Part shown: positions 1 to 12,254 of the stretch, piece after piece
Position numbering within the stretch: position 1 is the first letter of the stretch
How the letters are laid out: the number at the start of each line of letters is the position of its first letter
Assembly: GCA_048938295.1 (NCBI GenBank)
Contig: JBHLMI010000039.1
Coordinates: forward strand, 1 to 20,158
Length of the DNA stretch: 20,158 nt
Direction of reading: 5' to 3'
DNA from: Promethearchaeota archaeon
GTDB taxonomy: Archaea; Asgardarchaeota; Hermodarchaeia; Hermodarchaeales; Hermodarchaeaceae
Position numbers and translations under genes: made by a program
Notes under the pieces: generated by a model
Database searches by the model: none
Told to the model about the DNA's origin: nothing
Seen by the model: the letters and a program-made list of their open reading frames with translations, nothing else

Positions 1-498
1 GTCCTGGCTGCTGAGATGCGCAAGATTCCACGGAAGGACCGAGTCTGGTTCCTCGATGACTTGAAGCGCCAGATGGGTGAAAAGCGGATGGACTTCCTCA
101 CCAAACGTGAACCATCAGCTGTCCCGCCCAAAGAGACGCCACCAGTGGACAAAGTGTCCCCACCCAAAAAGGTCACTCCGCCCAAAGAGGGACGACCGGA
201 ACCGGCACCCACACCTCCTGAACCAGAGATTCCACCCCTCGAGGAAGTCAAACCCGTTGAACCCCCAGATACGAAAGTGTTCACCGAAGACCGTACAGCC
301 CCTACGGTGCTTCCGCCGGATTTGCAGCCTATTCCATCCGAACGACCGGAGGTGTTGGAAGAAATCCGTCGAGAACTCGACAAGATACCGGGGCTCACCA
401 CAGCGGACAAGGAAGCGCTCCTTGACCACCTTCGCCATCTGACCAAAAAAGAACGGGAAGCCACCTATCGCTCCTTGCGGCAAACAACCGAAGAGTAG
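1..498 (+). CDS. 3' end (cytoplasmic tail) of an upstream paralog of the giant surface protein; partial, 5' end outside the window
   Basis: Frame 1 is open from base 1 (VLAAEMRKIPRKDRVWFLDD...) to TAG at 496-498. It aligns with the C-terminus of the 736-9459 protein: 30/37 identical in the first block, 16/16 in TEDRTAPTVLPPDLQP, 28/40 in the last block. Many differences are synonymous. The ATG at 16 in the ORF track is an internal Met. Confidence 0.88.
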   Translation, partial: VLAAEMRKIPRKDRVWFLDDLKRQMGEKRMDFLTKREPSAVPPKETPPVDKVSPPKKVTPPKEGRPEPAPTPPEPEIPPLEEVKPVEPPDTKVFTEDRTAPTVLPPDLQPIPSERPEVLEEIRRELDKIPGLTTADKEALLDHLRHLTKKEREATYRSLRQTTEE

Positions 499-585: not shown

Positions 586-735
586 GCGTCACAGCGCCGT
601 CTCAGTAGCGGTTTGGTACCATTTCCAGACGGAAACCAGGGATACTCGATAGCATGTGATCCGACCATACAACCCATTCACATCACCTAGACACCCTGAA
701 ACCGTATGGGAACCGCAACCTCGAGGTCGATATGC

Positions 736-3700
736 ATGAATCGTCGAACCGTTATATGTTTGACATTTCTTACTTTATTCTTGATTTTTTCTCTCAGCAT
801 GGCTATACCAGGTTCGGAAACTATTGGAACCTTAGAATTTAAAGATTTGAGTGAGGAAGTCGGAACAAATTATACTCCTTCACCATTGATACCTCCACCA
901 TTACCTGAGGGACCTATCTATTCAGAGGGACAATTCCAGTATGCAGGACTGGGAGCCCCACTTACCACAAAGGAGTATGCTGAAGGATCCAACCGCTCCT
1001 TGCAGATTTCCAACTTTAATTATCTTGACAATAGATATGGTGAAGTCCGGTTACCCAGACAGTGGACAGGTTATCGATTAGAAGCGGATGTTTACAATCT
1101 ATATGACCAGCCCTATTTTGTTCAAGGCAGTCGCGAAAATGGAAATTTCGAATCAGTCGGAACTGCCTGGAGTGCTCAGAATAATGCCATGGGAGATAAT
1201 TCAACGTATGCCTATTATGGAACTCGTTGGGGGTCGGCTTATGGTTATTCAGGAAATGGTGTACAAACCTGGGTTGAATGGTGGAGTGGATGGCCCTGGG
1301 GGGTGAGTTCCTATGTGGTTTGGCGGAACGCAATTAATATTCAACGTGACGACCCCACCTATGCCAAGCTCACATTCCGCGTTCAAGTGAACCTAATTTC
1401 AGGTTCTTCTGGCGGCCGTGGTCGGATGGTCATCTATGCTGAAATCGCAGGTATTGTTTATCGACTATTACTAGATGAACATTGTCCAAATAACGGACAA
1501 TGGTACCAATTGAGCATCTCAGTACCAGCTGACGATTTACTGACCTGGTCTGTGCCTGGAAACATCGACGTTCGGTTAGGTTTGGGGTTCACAGGTTCGC
1601 AAACAGGTTGGGATTATGAGTATTGGGGACTGAAGTTTGATGATGTGACCCTTGAAGTGCGAGGCCTGGTTAACCCGAATGATACCACCTGGTTGGATTT
1701 AGTAATGAATTCCACAATTGCACAAACGGCAGGCTATGGGTATGGATCCTATTCCCTTGTTGGAACCTGGCCCAACCCCACCACAGATCATAAACAAGTC
1801 GTGGCCCATTGGCAAGTCACCGATGCGGATGCGCGACTCGTCCAATTCACCTATAACCTCACCCTATTCATTACTCGAGACGCAACAACCGAACAACAAA
1901 TCGGACCAGATGGTTCAGCTTTTACGGCAGGAAACGACCCAACTGTGTACTGGACCACCTGGATGTATGCTTATCAACCATACTTCTTTTCACAATACAA
2001 CCTTTCCCTTACGAAACCCACTACAGAAACTTGGACGATCGCTAACGTCATAGACCCACTCTTCACAGATCGAACAAGCGTCGTTACAACAAACGCAACC
2101 CACTTCCTTCTTTCAAGTTCTGCGATCAATGATATCTATGGCTGGTGGAACTTCACGTTCGCCTCCGTGAATCGCATTACTTCCATTAGTGGTATTGCTT
2201 CAAGTTATGACATCGGAGACACCCTTTCCATCAATGTCAACCACAATATTGTGACCTCCGGTCAATGTAACATCACCATCTACGATGCAAACCACTTAGT
2301 CATCCACGAAGAAGCCAAATCGCTAACGGGATCCACTGTAGTTTCTTTCAGTAAGCTCTTTGATAGTGGTGACAGCTTCGGTGCTGGACTATACACTATC
2401 TGCGCCACTTACGATAATGGTGCCACCGGGTCGATGACCCGTGCTGGATTTGCCTCCTCAACCTTCAAGATCGTTCATGCCACCTCTCTTGACATCGAAG
2501 AAGGTGCTACCCAAAAAACCGTGATCTATGGGTTGGGAACCTTCTTTGTACGCCTTACCTATGACGATTTGGACAAAACTGTCAATCCCTGGGTTGCTAA
2601 CACTACCGGAACCGTCCGAATTAATGGCTCCGTCGATGGCAACTTCATAGAATTCCAACAATTCGGAAATCTCTACCAGGCGGAAATCGATAACGACCTG
2701 ATGATTCCTGGGAATTATCCGTTTGTCATTGAAGCTGATGATCCCTACCATGATTATGCGACTGATTCGATTACCTTGTTGGTTCGCAGCGATGCCACTT
2801 TGACATCCCCTGAATCACCGGGAGTAACCCTGCCCTATGATGAGGCGACCGCCATTCAGGTCTTCTATGAGGACGGGGTGGGCGCAGGGATAGCTGGAGC
2901 CACTGTCACTACAGACTGGCCAACAGGACCAACTGGAACGAGTAATGGAACAGCTGGTTGGTATAATATTATCATCGATACCTCCGATCAGCCTTCTCCG
3001 GGAACCTATACCCTCACCGTCCAAGCACTCCGAAATTATTACACAACTCGAACAATCAAACTGACAATTGTGGTGCGCGAAGTCTCGACAACCATTGATT
3101 ATACGTCTCCTGGATCAGTACCTTGGGACGAAGATGTCGTAATCGACTTCAGCTTTTTTGCCAATGATGCAGATTCGACTGTCCATGATGGTGACCCCAT
3201 TACTAGTGCCAGCTTGGCCTTTCAACTGGATGGAGGAAGTCTAACACAGGGCTCAGATTACACCTTGGCAAATCATGGCGATGGAACCTATACTATCACC
3301 CTATTAGCAACAAGTGGAAAATTCGCTACCATCAAAACCGGCTATGAACTTCGAATTCAGGGCAACCCAACTAGTGCAATTTATGGTGATGCCACACGTA
3401 GGGTTTACTTCAATGTTCGTTCCCTTAATACAGTAATCACTTACATTCCTCCTGCACCTAAACCCTGGGGAAATGATGTAGTTATCACCCTTAATTTTAC
3501 TGTCGATGACCCTGACAGTACTGTACACAACGGTGAGAACATCCCCGGACTCCTCGTTGGGGATGTCAGCCTGACTCTGAATGGAGTACCTCTTGGCAGT
3601 TTTGGTTGGACCGCTCTTGGTGGAGGCACATACAACTTGACGATATACTCGAGTAGTATCTCAACTGTACGATCGTATAGCCTTGTCATAACGGTCGCTC

Positions 3701-6700
3701 ACAGTAGCGTGCACTACAAATTGGCGTTTCGGACTATCACTTTTCAGATTCTTTCCCACCAAACGCAGGTTATCGTTGCTCAGCCTGACCCTACACCCTA
3801 TGGGCAGCAAACCGCAGTTATAATTACGTGGAAAGACCTTGACACTGGAGGCTCACTCTCTGACACGCAACTCAATTACCTTACTCTGCAATTTACCAAT
3901 GGCACCGGGTTGCCGAACGAGTCATCTCTCACCTTTATCTTGGATACGAGTGCTTGGGCTCCAGGCACCTACGAAATCATTGTCACAACGATTCCCACCT
4001 CGGACCAATACCTACAGAGTAGTGGCACCCTCCGCGTCACAATCCTCATCCATCAAACCGCCTTAACTGTTCTTCCACCAGAAGCAACACCCTACGGTTA
4101 TACGACTGACATCACCATCCAATGGTTTGACCTCACCGCAGGCGGGCAAATATCCTACACCGAAGTTGAAAACATCACTATTACTGGTGCTGTAAGTGAC
4201 GTCATTTTTGGTCCCCTCTCCAGCTGGACCTTTACACTGGGAACGTCGGGACTTAACATTGGAACCTATTCCATCACTGTGACTGTTTATGCGAAAGAAA
4301 CACCTAGTCAAATTTATCAGCACTCGACTGGAAGCTTGAATAACGGATTGGTAATCCGTGCTCATCGTGTATATGTCCTTGTCACTGGACCCGCACCTGT
4401 TCCCGAGGATGGGTCTTTTCAATTGAGTGTCAGCTGGACCGATTTGGATACCGGATTACCCATCGATAATGGCACATACCTTCAGGACATCGTCGTCACT
4501 CATATCTCTGGACCATCAGCGCCTACCCTTCCCTGGACCGAGTTATCGAACCTTGAGTTCACTATCAACGCATTGGGTTGGGGTCGTGGCACTCACAAAC
4601 TTAATGTTACTGTGACTGCAAACTCTGCCAACTTTAATGTCGGTTTCGGAACTGTATTTGTAGTCATCCGAGTACACTCGATAATCGCTGATGTTGATCC
4701 CATACCACGTGTGCCCTTTGGATATGATGTACCGATTATTTTCCGAGTTAATGACAGTGATAACAATGTCGGGCTGGAGGAAAACCATATCATTTCTATC
4801 ATAATTACAGGAGGACCTTCAACTATTACATTGGACAGTACCAATTGGGCTATATGGGTTGATAACGGCACCGCAGGAGATGGCATTTATCTCATTACTT
4901 TGGATGTATCCGGTTGGTCACTGGGTACATATTCTAGTATTAAATTTAATGTGCAAACGTCAGTTGAATATGGGAATGGAGTTGTGAACACCCAAATAAC
5001 GATTCGTCCATTAGCTACAAGTTTCACATATCAGAGTCCACCTGTTGTTCCATGGGGTGAGGATGGGAAGTTGATTGTCACATTTCTTGTTGACGATACT
5101 GACCCCGTCACTACTAATCCAATTACTACTCCCATTTCTGGAGCAGCGATTTCTATAGCTACACTAACACTCGGTGTAGACTATGGTTTTGTTTATTGGC
5201 AGAATGGTAAATACAATATCACGTTTTACAATTCGTATCTGACCTCTGTCCAAGAGTATCAATTCGTTATCACTATTAATGGAGGAGCACAATATGATAT
5301 CAAGCAACTTGATGATGTTCCTCTCACAGTTCGAGCCTTATTCACTTGGTTACACCCCACAGCTGTTCCCGTCACAGCTTTTGGGGATGATGTCATCATT
5401 GAGGTTGAATACATTGTACTTGATGGTGAAAGTTCGCTCAACGGAGATCCAATTCATACGGGAACAGAAAGTATAATCGTTACAGGATTAGATGGCTTCA
5501 ATCCTACTTTGGTAACCTGGCAATGGATTGGCGCGACATCTGTGTATCGAATTACTATCGATGCCTCAGAAATAACCGACATTCAATCGTATAAAATTAT
5601 GATCAGCATTTCTGGGTCTGGTGCAGGTTATACACCTGATACCATTCCTGAACTTTTGTTCAGTGTTCGAACTGTTTTCACTGCGTTAGCTATAGCACCA
5701 GTAGATGCACAAGCATATCTTGATAACTTCACTATCCGAATCACCTATACTGTAAATGACCCAGATAGCTCTCTTAATGGATGGGGAATTGATGGACAAG
5801 CTTCTATTATTGAGCTTGTTGAATACCCCGGCCTCTTCTACGTAATTCCGCTAGGCAATGGGATTTACCGTATAGTCATCAACTCAACGAGTATTGGACC
5901 GCCTGGATCTTATCTGGTAACAGTTAACACAACCTGGGTGGATTCTCCACCCCCTTACGATGTCCAGACGCGACAATTAACTCTGTTCGTCACAACTCGT
6001 CCAACAACTATCCGGAACACAATTGGAGGAGAATTCGGTTACCTCGACGAAATTCGTGTCAACTTTACCTATTCCGATCAGCTCCGGACCCAATGGATAC
6101 TCAACACCTCTTATGGAGGAGGTCATGTCCTCATCTCGGTCTACAACACAACCCCTGTAATACCTGTACTAATAGATAGTGCAGCATGGTATGTCGTGAG
6201 TCTTGGTGGAACTGATGCCTTCCAACTCCGTATTGATGCAGACTACTTTGGCAGAGTCGGCTCCTTCGATTTCAAAGTCGAAATAACATGGCAATCTGCA
6301 ATAGCACCCTACTTCGTTGCTAAGGAGTTTGAATTCCGAACCTATGTTTATGGACAACGCACAGATATTATCATAACAGAGAGTGCTGGCGCAACTCCTT
6401 ATGACAGCAATATCATAATCGAATTCAAATATATTACCGAGCAGGGCGCTCCCATCAACCAAACAGATTATCCCTTTATCGATATATCACTCATTTGTGG
6501 TGAGTTGCCCAGTTTTGGCATCCAAGGAACAGATTGGAATTACACCTTTGAAGGTAATGGACTATACCGAATCTGGATTGATACAACTCGACTCTCAGGA
6601 ATTGGTACTTACACCTTCTTTTTCAATGTGACTTACCCTGAAGGCCTATCTCCTTTCTTAGAATCCCAATACAATGAACCTACCTCACGACGTGTCCGAA

Positions 6701-9459
6701 ATATAAACACGCTGCTAACCTTCATTGACCCAGGCTCATTGTTTTCCGGCGATGACCTGAATATCACAGTCCGTTACTGGAATCTTGATAACAATTCAGC
6801 AGTCTACTTTAATCCGCCAATCACTTACATCATTAGCGGGGGAACAGTTCAAAGCAGTCAATCTCTGGGAGGAGGATGGTGGGAATTCATCATCGATACC
6901 TCAGGTTTAGCAGCAGGGGCTGAATTTGACATTTGGGTTTATGCCCATCAGAACTTTTACACCTTCCAAAATATCTCAATTCCCGTGTATATCTTTGAAG
7001 TTCCTCTTGAGATTGATCTTCTATCCACTGGAGTTATTACTAGGTATTTCGGAGAAACCCCATTCCCCCTTGTTATTATCAACTTAACAATCGGTGCCGG
7101 ATCCGACATTAATGAGCCTGTAACTGACGCTTCAGTAATTGCTACTTGGGATCATGGAACCCTTGTCTTCGTAAATGAATACAATGGCACCTACTGGGTT
7201 GAAATCAGCTCGCTTTTTGACAAGGGGGCATACTTTGTCGAGATTAATGCCTCGAAAGTGGGATACTTTCAAGAGGATATTCGAATAATTTCTTATACAA
7301 TAACTGCCGGTCCGAGTCAATTGACTACCTACTTCTGTGGCCCAACAACAGGTGATGGTGTCATACCCAGCTTAAATGAAGGAACATCCTTCATTCTTTA
7401 TGCTGGTCATTGGTATTTCATTGGAGTCTGGTTCAAAACACTTGCTGGGGATAATATCACTGGTGCAATTGTAACGTACAGCAGTGCATTTACAGAAATT
7501 CCCTCCGGCTCTCTTACAGAGATATCACCGGGAATTTATGGAAAGTGGTTTGATTCATCAAGCTATGGAAAATTAATTTATTCAATGGAGGTCGTTGCGG
7601 ATACCGCTGCCCGAAACGTTCAATCCCAAAGGTTCCAATTCCAACTTGATGTTCGCTACGCCCCAGCGAAAATGATACCGGTAGGAGGTACCTATTTCAT
7701 CTCAGTGGAATACTTTGATAACTTCACGATCACAATTTATCTTAATGATACACTCACTAATTCGCCAATATCTTCCCAGAATATAACAGCCACGTGGGGT
7801 CCGCTTCCAAGTGGAAGCGCCTCACTAAATCCTTGGACTGGTGGGTACTATAATTACACATTTCCTGCAACACTTGCAGCTGGATTTACGTATGAATTAC
7901 ATTTAGACTTCAATGGCCCAGGATCCTTTGATTGTCCTCGAACCACTCTGACTATTCAAATTATTCCCCGTACAACGAAACCTATTGACCAAACGGCAAT
8001 TGTATCAGTCCGAGATGAATGGAATAACACAATCAGTATTCTCCAGGTACCAGTGGGTGATTGGCTCTATATTTATCTGAACTACACAGATGCTGATGGT
8101 ATTCCGATTCTAGATGGTGAAGGAGCGGTCGTTGTTGGCGATGTGTCCGTTCCCGGGGCGTTTCACTTTGACGCTGATGAAGGATTATATGTAGCTATGC
8201 TAAACGCAAGTCTCTTTGGTCGAGGAACCCACTCGCTTCGCGTCACAATTTCAAAAACAAACTATGAAAGTAAAGTCTATACGACAAACTTTGAAGTCAT
8301 TCGAATACCTACGCAAATAAGGGTCACCCAGATACAAGGAGAAAATGTAACAGGTCCTGATTTGTATCCTATTCTTTACATTGGAGTACCCGTATCTATA
8401 CAGATTTTCCTTCTAGATACTTGGCATAACCAAGGAGTTGAGAATGCTAACATAACACTTCCAACAACCCTCGTTGCTCAAGGCTTTCAGATTAATGAGT
8501 TAGGTAATGGATACTATGAAGTCGTTGGAACTTATCAGGGATTTAGTCTGCAACCTGTTTCAGTGGTCTTAACGATTACTGCTGTGAAAAATGAACCAGT
8601 TTCCCATGACCAAGCTACATTAGAAGGTTGGAGTATAGATTTCCATCCTCAAACTATATTTGTAGTTGGATTTTATGGAGGAATATTTGCGGCAGTGATA
8701 CTAATTGTCGCATTACTTGGTTGGGTCTTATGGTCACGGGTGTTCTCAATTCCGTGGGAAGTTAGGCGAATGCGATCTTTAGCCAAGAGCGTTGAGAAGG
8801 AAGAAGGGTATAAACTTAGTTCAAAGGACCTGAAACGCTTCCATGACAAGGAAATCACACTTAAAGATAAGGTCACCGTGGCGATGGGGACTGTCGGAGT
8901 TGCGGCGACACCTGCGATGATTCCTGCAATCGCAGAGGTTGAAGAGATTACAGCCACCGAAGAGGACATTATGGGGGAACTGGACAAGATTCCTGGATTG
9001 GGTCCCGAAGAGAAGGCTGTGCTTGCTGATGAGATGCGGAAGATCCCGCGTAAGGATCGGATCTGGTTCCTTGATGATTTGAGGAAGCAGATGGGTCAGC
9101 GGCGGATGGACTTCTTGACAACCCGGGAACGGCCTGTAAAACCTGAACCTACTCCACCAGAGGTTACTCCTCCAGCACCAGAAGAGCCCAAGCTTGAGGA
9201 GGTGAAGCCTAAGGAGCCGCCACCGTCTAAGGCGTTGACGGAGGACAGGACAGCGCCGACGGTGTTACCCCCAGACCTACAGCCAGCCCCTGCAGCTCCG
9301 CCTGGAGTGATTACAGAAATCCGTCGTGAATTGAACAAGATTCCAGGACTCTCCAAGGAAGAAAAGGCAGCCTTGATTGATCATCTGCAGTACTTGAGTA
9401 AGGAGGAACGGCAGGCTACCTATCGATCGCTTCGTATGTCCGCAGATTCCAACGAATGA
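736..9459 (+). CDS. Giant (~2,900 aa) single-pass cell-surface glycoprotein with tandem Ig-like repeats and a conserved cytoplasmic tail (adhesin/receptor-like)
   Basis: Uninterrupted 8.7-kb ORF. The start is probably ATG 736 (GAGGT SD at 723-727; MNRR followed by a hydrophobic stretch resembles a signal peptide); ATG 706 is an in-frame alternative. It has beta-strand-rich ~105-115-aa repeats, roughly 45-50 N-x-S/T sequons by hand count (all before the TM), one TM helix at ~8656-8733 followed by basic WEVRRMR, and a charged/Pro-rich tail. Confidence 0.9.
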   Translation: MNRRTVICLTFLTLFLIFSLSMAIPGSETIGTLEFKDLSEEVGTNYTPSPLIPPPLPEGPIYSEGQFQYAGLGAPLTTKEYAEGSNRSLQISNFNYLDNRYGEVRLPRQWTGYRLEADVYNLYDQPYFVQGSRENGNFESVGTAWSAQNNAMGDNSTYAYYGTRWGSAYGYSGNGVQTWVEWWSGWPWGVSSYVVWRNAINIQRDDPTYAKLTFRVQVNLISGSSGGRGRMVIYAEIAGIVYRLLLDEHCPNNGQWYQLSISVPADDLLTWSVPGNIDVRLGLGFTGSQTGWDYEYWGLKFDDVTLEVRGLVNPNDTTWLDLVMNSTIAQTAGYGYGSYSLVGTWPNPTTDHKQVVAHWQVTDADARLVQFTYNLTLFITRDATTEQQIGPDGSAFTAGNDPTVYWTTWMYAYQPYFFSQYNLSLTKPTTETWTIANVIDPLFTDRTSVVTTNATHFLLSSSAINDIYGWWNFTFASVNRITSISGIASSYDIGDTLSINVNHNIVTSGQCNITIYDANHLVIHEEAKSLTGSTVVSFSKLFDSGDSFGAGLYTICATYDNGATGSMTRAGFASSTFKIVHATSLDIEEGATQKTVIYGLGTFFVRLTYDDLDKTVNPWVANTTGTVRINGSVDGNFIEFQQFGNLYQAEIDNDLMIPGNYPFVIEADDPYHDYATDSITLLVRSDATLTSPESPGVTLPYDEATAIQVFYEDGVGAGIAGATVTTDWPTGPTGTSNGTAGWYNIIIDTSDQPSPGTYTLTVQALRNYYTTRTIKLTIVVREVSTTIDYTSPGSVPWDEDVVIDFSFFANDADSTVHDGDPITSASLAFQLDGGSLTQGSDYTLANHGDGTYTITLLATSGKFATIKTGYELRIQGNPTSAIYGDATRRVYFNVRSLNTVITYIPPAPKPWGNDVVITLNFTVDDPDSTVHNGENIPGLLVGDVSLTLNGVPLGSFGWTALGGGTYNLTIYSSSISTVRSYSLVITVAHSSVHYKLAFRTITFQILSHQTQVIVAQPDPTPYGQQTAVIITWKDLDTGGSLSDTQLNYLTLQFTNGTGLPNESSLTFILDTSAWAPGTYEIIVTTIPTSDQYLQSSGTLRVTILIHQTALTVLPPEATPYGYTTDITIQWFDLTAGGQISYTEVENITITGAVSDVIFGPLSSWTFTLGTSGLNIGTYSITVTVYAKETPSQIYQHSTGSLNNGLVIRAHRVYVLVTGPAPVPEDGSFQLSVSWTDLDTGLPIDNGTYLQDIVVTHISGPSAPTLPWTELSNLEFTINALGWGRGTHKLNVTVTANSANFNVGFGTVFVVIRVHSIIADVDPIPRVPFGYDVPIIFRVNDSDNNVGLEENHIISIIITGGPSTITLDSTNWAIWVDNGTAGDGIYLITLDVSGWSLGTYSSIKFNVQTSVEYGNGVVNTQITIRPLATSFTYQSPPVVPWGEDGKLIVTFLVDDTDPVTTNPITTPISGAAISIATLTLGVDYGFVYWQNGKYNITFYNSYLTSVQEYQFVITINGGAQYDIKQLDDVPLTVRALFTWLHPTAVPVTAFGDDVIIEVEYIVLDGESSLNGDPIHTGTESIIVTGLDGFNPTLVTWQWIGATSVYRITIDASEITDIQSYKIMISISGSGAGYTPDTIPELLFSVRTVFTALAIAPVDAQAYLDNFTIRITYTVNDPDSSLNGWGIDGQASIIELVEYPGLFYVIPLGNGIYRIVINSTSIGPPGSYLVTVNTTWVDSPPPYDVQTRQLTLFVTTRPTTIRNTIGGEFGYLDEIRVNFTYSDQLRTQWILNTSYGGGHVLISVYNTTPVIPVLIDSAAWYVVSLGGTDAFQLRIDADYFGRVGSFDFKVEITWQSAIAPYFVAKEFEFRTYVYGQRTDIIITESAGATPYDSNIIIEFKYITEQGAPINQTDYPFIDISLICGELPSFGIQGTDWNYTFEGNGLYRIWIDTTRLSGIGTYTFFFNVTYPEGLSPFLESQYNEPTSRRVRNINTLLTFIDPGSLFSGDDLNITVRYWNLDNNSAVYFNPPITYIISGGTVQSSQSLGGGWWEFIIDTSGLAAGAEFDIWVYAHQNFYTFQNISIPVYIFEVPLEIDLLSTGVITRYFGETPFPLVIINLTIGAGSDINEPVTDASVIATWDHGTLVFVNEYNGTYWVEISSLFDKGAYFVEINASKVGYFQEDIRIISYTITAGPSQLTTYFCGPTTGDGVIPSLNEGTSFILYAGHWYFIGVWFKTLAGDNITGAIVTYSSAFTEIPSGSLTEISPGIYGKWFDSSSYGKLIYSMEVVADTAARNVQSQRFQFQLDVRYAPAKMIPVGGTYFISVEYFDNFTITIYLNDTLTNSPISSQNITATWGPLPSGSASLNPWTGGYYNYTFPATLAAGFTYELHLDFNGPGSFDCPRTTLTIQIIPRTTKPIDQTAIVSVRDEWNNTISILQVPVGDWLYIYLNYTDADGIPILDGEGAVVVGDVSVPGAFHFDADEGLYVAMLNASLFGRGTHSLRVTISKTNYESKVYTTNFEVIRIPTQIRVTQIQGENVTGPDLYPILYIGVPVSIQIFLLDTWHNQGVENANITLPTTLVAQGFQINELGNGYYEVVGTYQGFSLQPVSVVLTITAVKNEPVSHDQATLEGWSIDFHPQTIFVVGFYGGIFAAVILIVALLGWVLWSRVFSIPWEVRRMRSLAKSVEKEEGYKLSSKDLKRFHDKEITLKDKVTVAMGTVGVAATPAMIPAIAEVEEITATEEDIMGELDKIPGLGPEEKAVLADEMRKIPRKDRIWFLDDLRKQMGQRRMDFLTTRERPVKPEPTPPEVTPPAPEEPKLEEVKPKEPPPSKALTEDRTAPTVLPPDLQPAPAAPPGVITEIRRELNKIPGLSKEEKAALIDHLQYLSKEERQATYRSLRMSADSNE
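2200..8640 (+). repeat. About 20 degenerate tandem Ig-like domain repeats (protein level) in the ectodomain
   Basis: Recurring pattern [VI]R-x-h-x-T...P-x-P-[WYF]-[GD]...h-x-h-x-[FWY]-x-D-x-D...G-x-Y-x-h-x-h-D, e.g. VRSLNTVITYIPPAPKPWGNDVVITLNFTVDDPD and IRPLATSFTYQSPPVVPWGEDGKLIVTFLVDDTD. Spacing is about 310-345 nt. Boundaries and count are approximate. Confidence 0.75.
9019..9435 (+). repeat. Diverged direct repeat of 1-480 (paralogous cytoplasmic-tail coding sequence)
   Basis: Codon-by-codon alignment with 1-480 shows high protein identity with mostly synonymous DNA changes, plus indels in the Pro-rich linker. Confidence 0.9.
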
Positions 9460-9505: not shown

Positions 9506-10924
9506 CTAGGTGCAGTGTCCAATACACCAGTGGGCATACCGCGTCATAATACCTAAGGTACGTGCTGCTCGTTCGGGCATCGGATATACCGGGACGCCGG
9601 CATCTTGGAGGGTGCGGATGCCTGAATCGCTGCGGTCTTGGGTGGAGGAGATGAGTACTGGTTTCTGGTGCTGTTTGATGGTGCGGATGAGTTGAGCGGC
9701 TGCATCTTCAAATTCAGCTTGCATCATTGTAACGACATTTTGGGGGACATCGGGGCTTTGGCGGAATTGGACCATCAGGTCAGGTCCAAAGAAGCCGTGG
9801 ATGAGGAGTGAATCAATTGTATCGAGGTCAAGTAGGATATCAGCGCACTGAGCGAACAAGTGCATGTTAATCGTGAAGGTGCTATCGACGGGATTACCAG
9901 TGACAGCGGTGGGTGGGAGTAGGGTCTTTAGTTGCTCTTGAACTGTGTCATCGAGGGGTGGTACGGCGAGGCCTTCTTCAGCGCAGACATCAGTTAGGGA
10001 AACCCCGGGCCCGCCAGAGTTCGTGAGAATGGCGACACGGTTGCCTTTCGGGAGGGGCTGGTGTCCAAGGGCCATGGACCAGTCGAACAGGTCTTCAAGG
10101 CTGTTTCCTCGTAGAATACCGACTTGGCGCATAGCGCCTTGAAAGACATCGCGGCGACCAGCAAAGGCGCCGGTATGCGAGATGGCGGCTCGCTGGCCTT
10201 GGCTGGTGCGGCCTACTTTCATGAGCAGAATCGGTTTCTTGGGGGTAATGGTTTTTGCTGCTTGTAAGAAGCGTGGTCCGTCATTGAAGCCCTCGATGTA
10301 GAGCAGAATGACTCGTGTTTCCGGATCATCAGCGAGAAGTTTGATGTAGTCTGTGCAGGTTAAGACGGCTTCATTGCCTGTGCTGATGACAGTGCTTAGT
10401 CCGAGCCCCCAGCGTTCGATAGAAAGGAAGTTTTGCACGGCAAAGGCACCGCTTTGGGAAACAAATGCGACCGGTCCTTGCTTGGGAAAGTAGGGCATGG
10501 TGGTGAGGTTGAGTTTGAGGGCAGGGCGGCTGATGCCAACACAATTGGGACCTACCAAATTGAAATGATGGCGTTTGGCAATGGCTTTGATTTCCTCTTC
10601 AGCCTCTTTTCCCTCAGGTCCCACTTCCCGATACCCAGCCGTCACGAGGATGATGTTGCGGATATCGGCTTGAGCGCATTGGTCGAGGACTTCAGGAACA
10701 GCAGATTTCGGGACAATAATCGAGGCGACATCGGGTGTAGGGCAGTCGAGAACGCTACGGTAGGCTTTGTAGCCGTGTACCGTATCGGCTTTGGGGTGAA
10801 TGGGGTACACCATGCCTTCATAGCCACCGGAGCGGACGTTGAAGGTAACGAGGGAACCCATTTTGGTGATGTTGGTGGAGGCGCCGACGATGGCGATGGA
10901 TTTAGGGTTGAGGAGGCGGTACAT
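9506..10924 (-). CDS. acdA: ADP-forming acyl-CoA synthetase (acetate-CoA ligase, ACD) alpha subunit: CoA-binding plus succinyl-CoA-ligase-like domains
   Basis: N-terminal LLNPKSIAIVGAS CoA-binding start, GPNCVG, SQSGA, STGNEA, phospho-His motif SHTGA, TNSGGPG and NPVD. No ATP-grasp domain. GGAG SD 8 nt before the ATG. Substrate is not determinable from sequence. Confidence 0.88.
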   Translation of the reverse strand: MYRLLNPKSIAIVGASTNITKMGSLVTFNVRSGGYEGMVYPIHPKADTVHGYKAYRSVLDCPTPDVASIIVPKSAVPEVLDQCAQADIRNIILVTAGYREVGPEGKEAEEEIKAIAKRHHFNLVGPNCVGISRPALKLNLTTMPYFPKQGPVAFVSQSGAFAVQNFLSIERWGLGLSTVISTGNEAVLTCTDYIKLLADDPETRVILLYIEGFNDGPRFLQAAKTITPKKPILLMKVGRTSQGQRAAISHTGAFAGRRDVFQGAMRQVGILRGNSLEDLFDWSMALGHQPLPKGNRVAILTNSGGPGVSLTDVCAEEGLAVPPLDDTVQEQLKTLLPPTAVTGNPVDSTFTINMHLFAQCADILLDLDTIDSLLIHGFFGPDLMVQFRQSPDVPQNVVTMMQAEFEDAAAQLIRTIKQHQKPVLISSTQDRSDSGIRTLQDAGVPVYPMPERAARTLGIMTRYAHWCIGHCT

Positions 10925-11063
10925 GCTAGGAGCTCCATAAAGGGTAAAGTGAAATAGGTACTCGTTCCCATAAGCCTTCTGCCTGTTAGGGAAATGAAAA
11001 ACAATTAAAGAGACCGAGAAGAGTAGCTGCTACCACAGAACCTACCTTACCGGAGGGTTTCTC

Positions 11064-12254
11064 ATGACGACAGCAAAAGTTGAGATTGTTAAAGATGTTT
11101 ATTGGGTGGGTGCCATTGACTGGATGCTCCGCGACTTCCACGGACTCTGGACCCCCAAGGGCGGCACCTATAACACGTATTTAATTATTGATAAAAAAGT
11201 CACCCTCATTGATACGGTCTCACCCAACTTCACCGAGGAACTTTTGGATCGTATCCGTACGATTATTGATCCTGCCAAAATTGATTACATTATCTGCCAA
11301 CACGTTGAACCTGATCATTCCTCAACCTATGAAGATATGATTAAAGTGGCACCAAAAGCCAAAATCATCACTTCAGAGAAAGGAGCAGAATTCCTAAAGC
11401 TCAACTACCCAGGTGTAGAGTTTCCCCTTGAAATCGTTGAAGAGGGTGACTCCTTAAGCCTGGGCAAGCGCTCACTTACCTTTGTCAAGATTCCCATGGT
11501 ACACTGGCCTGAAACCATGATAAGCTACATGCCCGAAGAACAGCTGGTCTTCAGCAATGATGCTTTTGGCATGCAAATCGCCACCCCCTATCGGTTTGCA
11601 GATCAAGTCGACGACTGGTATGAATCCCTGCGTGCCTACTACAGCTATATTGTTCGATTCCACGCCAAGTCTGTGCTTAATGCCTTCAAAAAGGTGGAAG
11701 GCGTTCCCATCAAAATCATCTGCCCTTCCCATGGTCCGATATGGCGCAAGAACGTCGACAAGATCATGGAGATTTATCGTCGCTGGTCCAGCAGCCCTGA
11801 AAAGGAAACTGCAATTGTGGTATATTCAACGATATGGAAAAGTACCGAGAAAATGGCGTTTGCCATCCGTGAAGGGATTGCTAGCGTAGGCGTACCTGCT
11901 GAGATATACAACTTGGAAGATGATCCATTCAGTCGTGTTCAAGGAGCAGCCATGGAAGCAAAGGCTGTTGTAGTCGGGGCCATGACCTACAACCTCGATC
12001 CCTATTACCCCACTGCAGCCTTTATGCCCTACCTGAAACACCTGCGACCCGACAACAAAATTGGAGCGGCTTTTGGCTCATACGGCTGGAGTGGTGGTGC
12101 AACACGAATCCTTACGGAGCAATTGAAAGAGTACAAGTTTGGAGAAGTGTTAGACCCCCTCGATGTACGATTCCGTCCTAGCGAAGAAGATTTAAAGCGC
12201 TGCTTTGAGTATGGTCAAGAAATCGGGCGAAAAGTCAAAGCAGCCTTCGCCTAA
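11064..12254 (+). CDS. fprA: Flavodiiron protein (FprA/ROO type O2/NO reductase): metallo-beta-lactamase-like diiron domain plus flavodoxin domain
   Basis: GGTYNTYLI; diiron ligands HVEPDH, VHWPE, SNDAFG, PSHG; flavodoxin loop YSTIWKSTEKMA and AFGSYGWSGGA. GGAGG SD at 11052-11056. Confidence 0.93.
   Translation: MTTAKVEIVKDVYWVGAIDWMLRDFHGLWTPKGGTYNTYLIIDKKVTLIDTVSPNFTEELLDRIRTIIDPAKIDYIICQHVEPDHSSTYEDMIKVAPKAKIITSEKGAEFLKLNYPGVEFPLEIVEEGDSLSLGKRSLTFVKIPMVHWPETMISYMPEEQLVFSNDAFGMQIATPYRFADQVDDWYESLRAYYSYIVRFHAKSVLNAFKKVEGVPIKIICPSHGPIWRKNVDKIMEIYRRWSSSPEKETAIVVYSTIWKSTEKMAFAIREGIASVGVPAEIYNLEDDPFSRVQGAAMEAKAVVVGAMTYNLDPYYPTAAFMPYLKHLRPDNKIGAAFGSYGWSGGATRILTEQLKEYKFGEVLDPLDVRFRPSEEDLKRCFEYGQEIGRKVKAAFA

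Follow-up and report, generated by a model that had tools for sequence, protein, structure and literature searches.

In eukaryotic receptors, short linear motifs (SLiMs) of the ELM type, such as integrin NPxY and the late domains P(T/S)AP and YPxL, are short contiguous cores in the disordered tails of single-pass surface proteins, far more conserved than their flanks and plastic between lineages. Other described systems that resemble the element studied here are the MIT-interacting motif 2 (MIM2) of subunits of ESCRT-III, an endosomal sorting complex (CHMP6/Vps20 and Sulfolobus CdvB), a proline-rich extended peptide read by the MIT domain of Vps4; the (EP)n-(KP)n spacer of TonB; and three-helix peptide-binding bundles (protein A B/Z domain, paramyxovirus P XD, KIX and PABC/MLLE). 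The cells of Asgard archaea bear elaborate surfaces and protrusions and possess an actin cytoskeleton; we know of no account of how their surface proteins connect to the cell interior, and ordinary archaeal surface proteins, to our knowledge, stop directly after the membrane anchor. We analysed a 20,158-nucleotide stretch of DNA (the window), which is an entire contig (C64) of a Hermodarchaeota (Asgard) metagenome-assembled genome (MAG; 2.5 Mb, 66 contigs, 91.6% complete) and encodes a giant surface protein of 2,917 residues whose predicted cytoplasmic tail contains the peptide TEDRTAPTVLPPDLQP. The core of this peptide is the tail's most constrained stretch, under purifying selection above that acting on the flanking folded modules. 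On balance, we favour the view that the peptide is a genuine short linear docking motif, found in the tails of one subfamily ('A') of giant surface proteins of Candidatus Hermodarchaeum, that binds a separate cytoplasmic protein in extended form, probably jointly with an adjacent three-helix module (module 2).

The window contains two copies of the 16-residue peptide on the forward strand, one at 9238..9285 (tail residues 165–180) and one at 283..330, in the tail of an upstream tandem paralogue. The initial annotation reported that all 16 residues are identical between the copies and that 11 of the 16 codons differ synonymously; re-translation gave the same result, with 14 nucleotide differences, all of them synonymous. 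No further occurrence of the peptide was found in the 2.5-Mb genome. The linker that joins the two folded modules of the tail measures 65 residues in one paralogue and 86 in the other, and its sequence differs between them save for the motif and a P-L-E-E-V-K-P-x-E-P-P block. The description of the linker as variable outside the motif therefore stood for length and sequence between the paralogues, but not for this upstream block, which is also conserved in the genus (consensus P[LI][ED][ED]V.P.EPP). In the window the block reads PKLEEVKPKEPP (9187..9222, forward strand) and lies 5–6 residues ahead of the motif, with V153, E157, P158 and P159 invariant in the genus; sequence comparison placed its counterpart in the paralogue, PPLEEVKPVEPP, at 232..267 (forward strand).

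Selection was assessed by aligning the codons of 14 tails from the genus. The proportion of synonymous differences (pS) was saturated in every region of the tail (0.73–0.84), and the proportion of nonsynonymous differences (pN) rose from 0.03 in the core to 0.08 in module 1, 0.19 in module 2, 0.21 in the upstream block and 0.41–0.48 in the rest of the linker. R168, T169, A170, P171, T172, V173 and P175 were invariant, with 3–5 codons used for each. Only 12 of the 60 linker columns were invariant, and six of these are consecutive (R168–V173); within the whole tail, this RTAPTV run was equalled only by the module 1 runs ELDKIPGLG, EMRKIP and WFLDDL. The claim that the peptide is a strongly selected linear motif was supported by these values. 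Several trivial causes of the identity were also considered. Chance was rejected, as an invariant run of this length arose within the linker in only 107 of 100,000 shuffles. Because synonymous sites are saturated, recent common descent and gene conversion were ruled out, as was a nucleotide-level element such as an RNA structure or an antisense open reading frame.

Conservation of the core (DRTAPTVLPPD; 9244..9276, forward strand) extended to homologues beyond the original pair. It was present in 28 of 32 distinct subfamily A tails, with the consensus [DE]-R-[TVI]-A-P-[TS]-V-[LVR]-P-[PTRS]-[DE] across the 28. The R, A, P, V and P positions were identical in all 28 sequences and the T/S position was likewise filled by one of these two residues throughout; residue 172 was Thr in 27 and Ser in one, and residue 169 was Thr in 24, Val in three and Ile in one. 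Between module 1 and the core lay 38 to 69 residues, and 15 (21 tails) or 14 (seven tails) separated the core from module 2, though the intervening residues vary. Variants of the core include ERIAPTVLPPE (P0022) and, in metagenome proteins of a sister lineage (P0015, P0017, P0018 and P0039), KERVAPTVRPREE; P0016, which sits on a long branch, carries the degenerate TEDVAPPDEV. The four sister-lineage proteins also contain, 1–2 residues farther on, a second partial copy (RVAPAP or HVAPPP), which makes the [TV]AP element a tandem half-repeat.

A tree built from the modules alone, with the linker removed, recovered subfamily A as a clade with support of 100/100, within which a motif-less sister genus branches first and the lineage carrying RVAPTVRPR next. 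Four genomes (G006, G011, G012 and G014) each hold at least two motif-bearing paralogue lineages side by side, and the motif has therefore been kept through several old gene duplications and many speciations. At the analogous place, two members of the sister genus (L016 and P0024) have another conserved peptide, PWT..E[AV]GIPPE, which suggests motif turnover rather than simple loss; a third (L018) has none. Rewriting between genera is the usual behaviour of linear motifs. The sister-genus peptide lies about 26 residues from module 2 (L016:1498-1752 of genome G016, and P0024).

As a whole, the tail family is rare: 39 clusters emerged when 1.84 billion representative proteins were searched exhaustively with a profile. 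The family was present in all 18 genomes of the same taxonomic family and, among the 42 sampled from the phylum, in only one other, weakly. It comprises two subfamilies, A with the Pro-rich linker and B with a short linker and without the motif. Subfamily B includes three tandem giant genes of this genome (L004, L005 and L006; G000:C2:37349-53177) that have the transmembrane helix, juxtamembrane segment and module 1 in common with subfamily A and carry a conserved peptide of their own, QMADGTRF[GAQD]R, directly after module 1; one of them (2,116 residues) bears a third helical module. An orthologous gene in another genome (L029; G007:C59:9667-12909) breaks into two frames where the Pro-rich linker contains a short stretch of unreadable bases (X), probably an assembly or masking gap and no real frameshift.

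The host gene (706..9459, forward strand), identified from the list of open reading frames and its translation, encodes a type-I protein with an N-terminal signal/anchor, an ectodomain of ~2,640 residues, one transmembrane helix and a cytoplasmic tail of ~237 residues. Only two strongly hydrophobic 19-residue windows are found in the protein, at residues 16 and 2658. The second is the transmembrane helix GGIFAAVILIVALLGWVLW (8677..8733, forward strand; residues 2658–2676; Hessa-scale sum −2.1), which is followed by the basic juxtamembrane segment SIPWEVRRMR. Because this basic segment follows the helix, the positive-inside rule predicts a type-I protein with a cytoplasmic tail; the first 45 tail residues have a net charge of +4, and 48 N-glycosylation sequons fall in the ectodomain and none in the tail. 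A second transmembrane helix, which would place the motif outside the cell, was sought in the tail stretch VAMGTVGVAATPAMIPAIA and rejected: its Hessa sum of +5.3 is like that of strands in the ectodomain, and orthologues from the sister genus carry Asp, Gln or His at this place. Window positions 8869-8970 (tail residues 42–75), which lie between the juxtamembrane helices and module 1, encode a hydrophobic stretch that is conserved, AM.TIGVAATPAMIP, and after it an acidic cluster, EEVEEVTATEEDIM; this region is possibly a further candidate segment for interaction or membrane contact, and by the Hessa scale it is no transmembrane helix.

We modelled the tail with AlphaFold2 in two forms, the full tail with a 16-sequence alignment and residues 148–237 alone with 19 sequences that included the divergent lineage. 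The full-tail model ran from the juxtamembrane helices to module 1 (residues 72–126), a segment without secondary structure (127–185) and module 2 (186–236). Module 1 (8959..9123, forward strand; ELDKIPGLG...EMRKIP...WFLDDL) was predicted as a three-helix unit with helices at 72–80, 87–97 and 102–126 and a predicted local distance difference test score (pLDDT) of 77–82; its invariant runs cover tail residues 78–86, 96–101 and 107–112. The Pro/Glu/Lys-rich linker (9124..9303, forward strand) varies in length and sequence upstream of the motif and was predicted to be disordered, with a pLDDT of 40–51 and no secondary structure. Module 2 (9301..9453, forward strand; EIRRELNKIPGL...YRSLR) was predicted as a second three-helix unit (helices 186–197, 204–214 and 219–236; pLDDT ~90). 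The motif was coil in both models, with a pLDDT of 40–51 in the full tail and 54–64 in residues 148–237, compared with 84–90 for the adjoining helices in the two models (84–86 in the shorter one). Because both models leave the motif as coil, it is not predicted to belong to the fold of module 2, and the possibility that it is an integral part of that module, which the initial annotation had named as an outcome that would refute the docking motif, found no support in the models.

Searches for relatives of the tail returned little. A Pfam scan of the host and paralogue tails found no family, Foldseek matched nothing in the PDB to the full-tail model at E ≤ 0.001, and the ESM Atlas yielded no usable match. 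VIA-align of the motif plus module 2 model retrieved generic three-helix bundles only, protein A-like ones best (Z ≤ 6.2), and module 2 is, as modelled, a generic small three-helix bundle with weak, non-diagnostic structural matches. Small three-helix bundles often bind peptides, extended or helical. Modules 1 and 2 resemble the peptide-binding bundles named above in being three-helix bundles of ~50 residues, and their closest structural matches fall in this class (Z 5–6.2); unlike them, however, the modules score in the generic helical range, have no sequence kinship and have no shown ligand. The linker invites comparison with TonB, as in several paralogues its variable part is an EP/KP-type stretch (for example, ...EPKVEPEPKPKRKPKPK...), suggesting a similar role as an extended spacer. 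The resemblance is compositional only, since the tail lacks the TonB C-terminal domain and is cytoplasmic rather than periplasmic. One metagenome protein from JGI (P0012) carries the automatic annotation 'outer membrane biosynthesis protein TonB', a false positive that stems from the composition of the EP/KP-rich linker.

The element is familiar in kind, in that it looks like a linear docking motif in a disordered tail, by analogy with eukaryotic receptors. At 11 residues its core is short and contiguous (SLiM cores span about 3–12 residues), it lies in a region that AlphaFold2 predicts to be disordered, and the pN, pS and run tests place its conservation over the flanks at real evolutionary depth. 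Like ELM-type motifs it contains proline, was rewritten in the sister genus and would presumably be extended when bound. It differs from them in lying outside the motif classes tested, with no P[TS]AP and no MIM2 core, in its archaeal host and in its fixed spacing to a three-helix module. These differences are what is new: a sequence class without a match among those classes, an Asgard host whose surface proteins would be expected to stop at the anchor, and, at the end of a polyproline-type spacer, a three-helix module to which the motif is coupled at a fixed distance. Full-text literature searches that combined Asgard with cytoplasmic tail, or with linear or proline-rich motifs, returned no description of the motif.

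In the docking model that we favour, the Pro/Glu/Lys linker would act as an extended, TonB-like spacer and keep a distal unit, made up of the upstream block, the motif and module 2, at some distance beneath the membrane. The motif, extended or in a polyproline-II conformation, would occupy a groove on another cytoplasmic protein, with module 2 probably taking part in the binding, and the surface protein would thereby be coupled to an intracellular structure or sorting machine. Several points weigh against this model. No binding partner emerged from reader-domain searches in the genome or from comparison of gene neighbourhoods; across the genus, the neighbourhood of the motif gene holds no conserved small partner gene, and its neighbours are metabolic, with acdA and fprA downstream. 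None of the known motif classes tested matched the motif. Its narrow range, one genus plus a sister lineage with degeneration or loss in the sister genus (L016, L018 and P0024), shows that the tail family as a whole can do without it. The disorder and topology of the tail are predictions, all sequences compared derive from MAGs and metagenomes, and the fixed spacing between core and module 2 suits an intramolecular contact almost as well. With regard to candidate readers, SH3, EVH1, 14-3-3, LC8, calcineurin PxIxIT and MYND consensus patterns, compared by eye, yielded none that fits all 28 cores, and we claim none; UEV (PF05743), WW and dynein light chain LC8 domains had no match in the genome, but the control searches for all three likewise found nothing in any genome, so that these blanks carry no information. 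The genome does encode a profilin.

The strict 14–15-residue spacing across a spacer of variable sequence is also what would be expected if the motif folded back onto its own module 2, or onto either module of a neighbouring molecule, as an intramolecular or homotypic latch that regulates or cross-links tails. Such a latch is further favoured by the slightly higher pLDDT of the motif when it is modelled with module 2 alone and, through weak structural analogies, by the peptide binding common among three-helix bundles. The motif nevertheless received no confident placement or secondary structure in either AlphaFold2 model, a result with which a weak contact is still compatible, and sister-genus orthologues retain module 2 yet have lost or rewritten the motif, which is easier to reconcile with a separate, lineage-specific reader protein; we regard the latch as unlikely, if still worth serious attention. 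The residue frequencies bear on phosphorylation, which the initial annotation had proposed for Thr without singling out a position. The first Thr is not an obligatory phospho-acceptor, because residue 169 is Val or Ile in four of the 28 sequences, in the manner of a beta-branched packing residue. The second is compatible with the proposal: position 172 (in APTV) is always Thr or Ser, and a switch in which its phosphorylation causes the motif to be read or silenced would draw on two Pkinase-type matches in the genome, one of them above the cut-off, and on a calcineurin-like phosphoesterase gene that adjoins the ESCRT genes. However, the site has no Pro at +1 and fits no known kinase consensus, no FHA domain was found in the 91.6% complete genome, and the invariance of eight residues in a row exceeds the needs of a kinase site, so that such a switch strikes us as quite improbable. 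Ribosome pausing offers an account at the level of the nascent chain. P-P-[DE] is among the strongest stalling triplets (EF-P/eIF5A), it occurs in 21 of the 28 sequences, and conservation at the amino-acid rather than the nucleotide level would be consistent with translation control through an aIF5A-dependent pause. The strongest constraint, however, falls on R-T-A-P-T-V and not on PP[DE], whose second Pro is Thr, Ser or Arg in seven of the 28; other Pro runs are abundant in the linker and free to vary, and the site lies ~170 residues past the transmembrane helix, too late for sensing membrane insertion. We consider this the least credible of the readings.

The possible link to ESCRT deserves separate treatment, as the initial annotation had likened the peptide to MIM2-type motifs that bind Vps4 MIT domains. 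If the likeness held, the motif would recruit Vps4 for ESCRT-dependent sorting or shedding of the surface protein, and the organism has the machinery: two tandem Snf7-family ESCRT-III genes (P0003, L037:9210-9851, and P0004, L037:9856-10488, both on G000:C6), Vps4, and a zinc-ribbon/coiled-coil/PH/steadiness-box protein, which belongs to an Asgard protein family (PMC11188069). A search for MIT domains in the genome itself found no match; this blank is an assembly artefact, because its own Vps4 gene is cut by the start of a contig (G000:C53:1-800, L053), with loss of the N-terminus that bears the MIT domain, while Vps4 is complete (380 residues) in relatives, and 13 of the 14 relatives from the genus have it with an MIT domain. 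MIM2-like Pro-rich motifs have been described in Asgard Vps20/32/60 proteins (PMC7240154), and the MIM2 core is hydrophobic-P-x-hydrophobic-P (PMC8970359, after Kojima 2016 and Samson 2008). The motif is likewise Pro-rich, and it has P-[ST]-V in common with the host's own MIM2, LPSVPE. None of the 28 motif windows matched the MIM2 core by a loose, strict or classic expression, however, while the positive control LPSVP was found in the ESCRT-IIIB protein P0004, and the resemblance to MIM2 failed on this comparison. Location points the same way: MIM2 sits in the C-terminal tail of an Snf7-family ESCRT-III subunit, whereas the motif is carried by a surface protein that is no ESCRT-III subunit and whose tail matches no Pfam family, and the known partners of MIT domains comprise ESCRT-III tails and a few enzymes rather than cargo. 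When the Vps4 MIT domain (residues 1–80; alignment A2) was co-folded with the motif peptide (residues 148–186; alignment A1), the score was 0.00, which carries no weight for or against binding. The P[TS]AP late-domain expression also matched none of the 28 windows, and the motif is not a late domain of this kind because Arg, never Pro, precedes [TVI]-A-P in all 28. We therefore do not class the motif as MIM2 or PTAP, and we rate recruitment of the MIT domain as very unlikely; a non-canonical ESCRT contact is possible, albeit unsupported. In the host, the MIT-interacting motifs are divided between the tandem ESCRT-III proteins: P0004 ends in GQLPSVPEGEE, a canonical MIM2, followed by a MIM1-like helix (RELERLKKEV), and P0003 has a MIM1-like helix only (SELEKEIERLKEE).

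Returning to the docking model, the family combines a giant surface protein with a long, eukaryote-style cytoplasmic tail in which selection is strongest on a short disordered peptide. If it docks as predicted, the motif provides a clean, testable handle on how the Asgard surface is coupled to the interior, albeit one of narrow range (one genus and a sister lineage, within a tail family of only 39 clusters). It is a concrete bait of about 11–35 residues that can be synthesised to capture an intracellular partner, and the identity of that partner would tell whether Asgard cells already had a eukaryote-type, motif-based receptor–adaptor logic. A bolder and rather doubtful extension is that the motif and module 2 form the cytoplasmic 'hook' of integrin-like giant adhesins, held 10–20 nm below the membrane on the polyproline spacer and docking to a eukaryote-like machine, either actin regulators such as profilin or gelsolin-type proteins or ubiquitin/ESCRT sorting. 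Should this hook exist, SLiM-based coupling of receptor tails to the cytoskeleton or to sorting would predate eukaryotes.

The remainder of the window bears on the setting of the gene. The upstream tandem paralogue (1..498, forward strand) was recognized from its sequence; only its 3′ end is present, as the gene is cut by the end of the contig, and its tail has the same architecture. Its sister-species orthologue (L030) is complete and giant, with an open frame of 4,511 residues. Among public sequencing runs, the stretch was present in four sediment-metagenome DNA runs of one study, two of which may be the source sample, and no RNA run was listed as holding it. Neighbouring genes include an archaeal HMG-CoA synthase/thiolase/DUF35 trio. 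Downstream of the host gene, at window positions 9506-12254 and at loci L007-L050, a convergent acdA (ADP-forming acetyl-CoA synthetase-like) and the following flavodiiron gene fprA (ODP/flavodoxin) are syntenic with the last giant gene throughout the genus.

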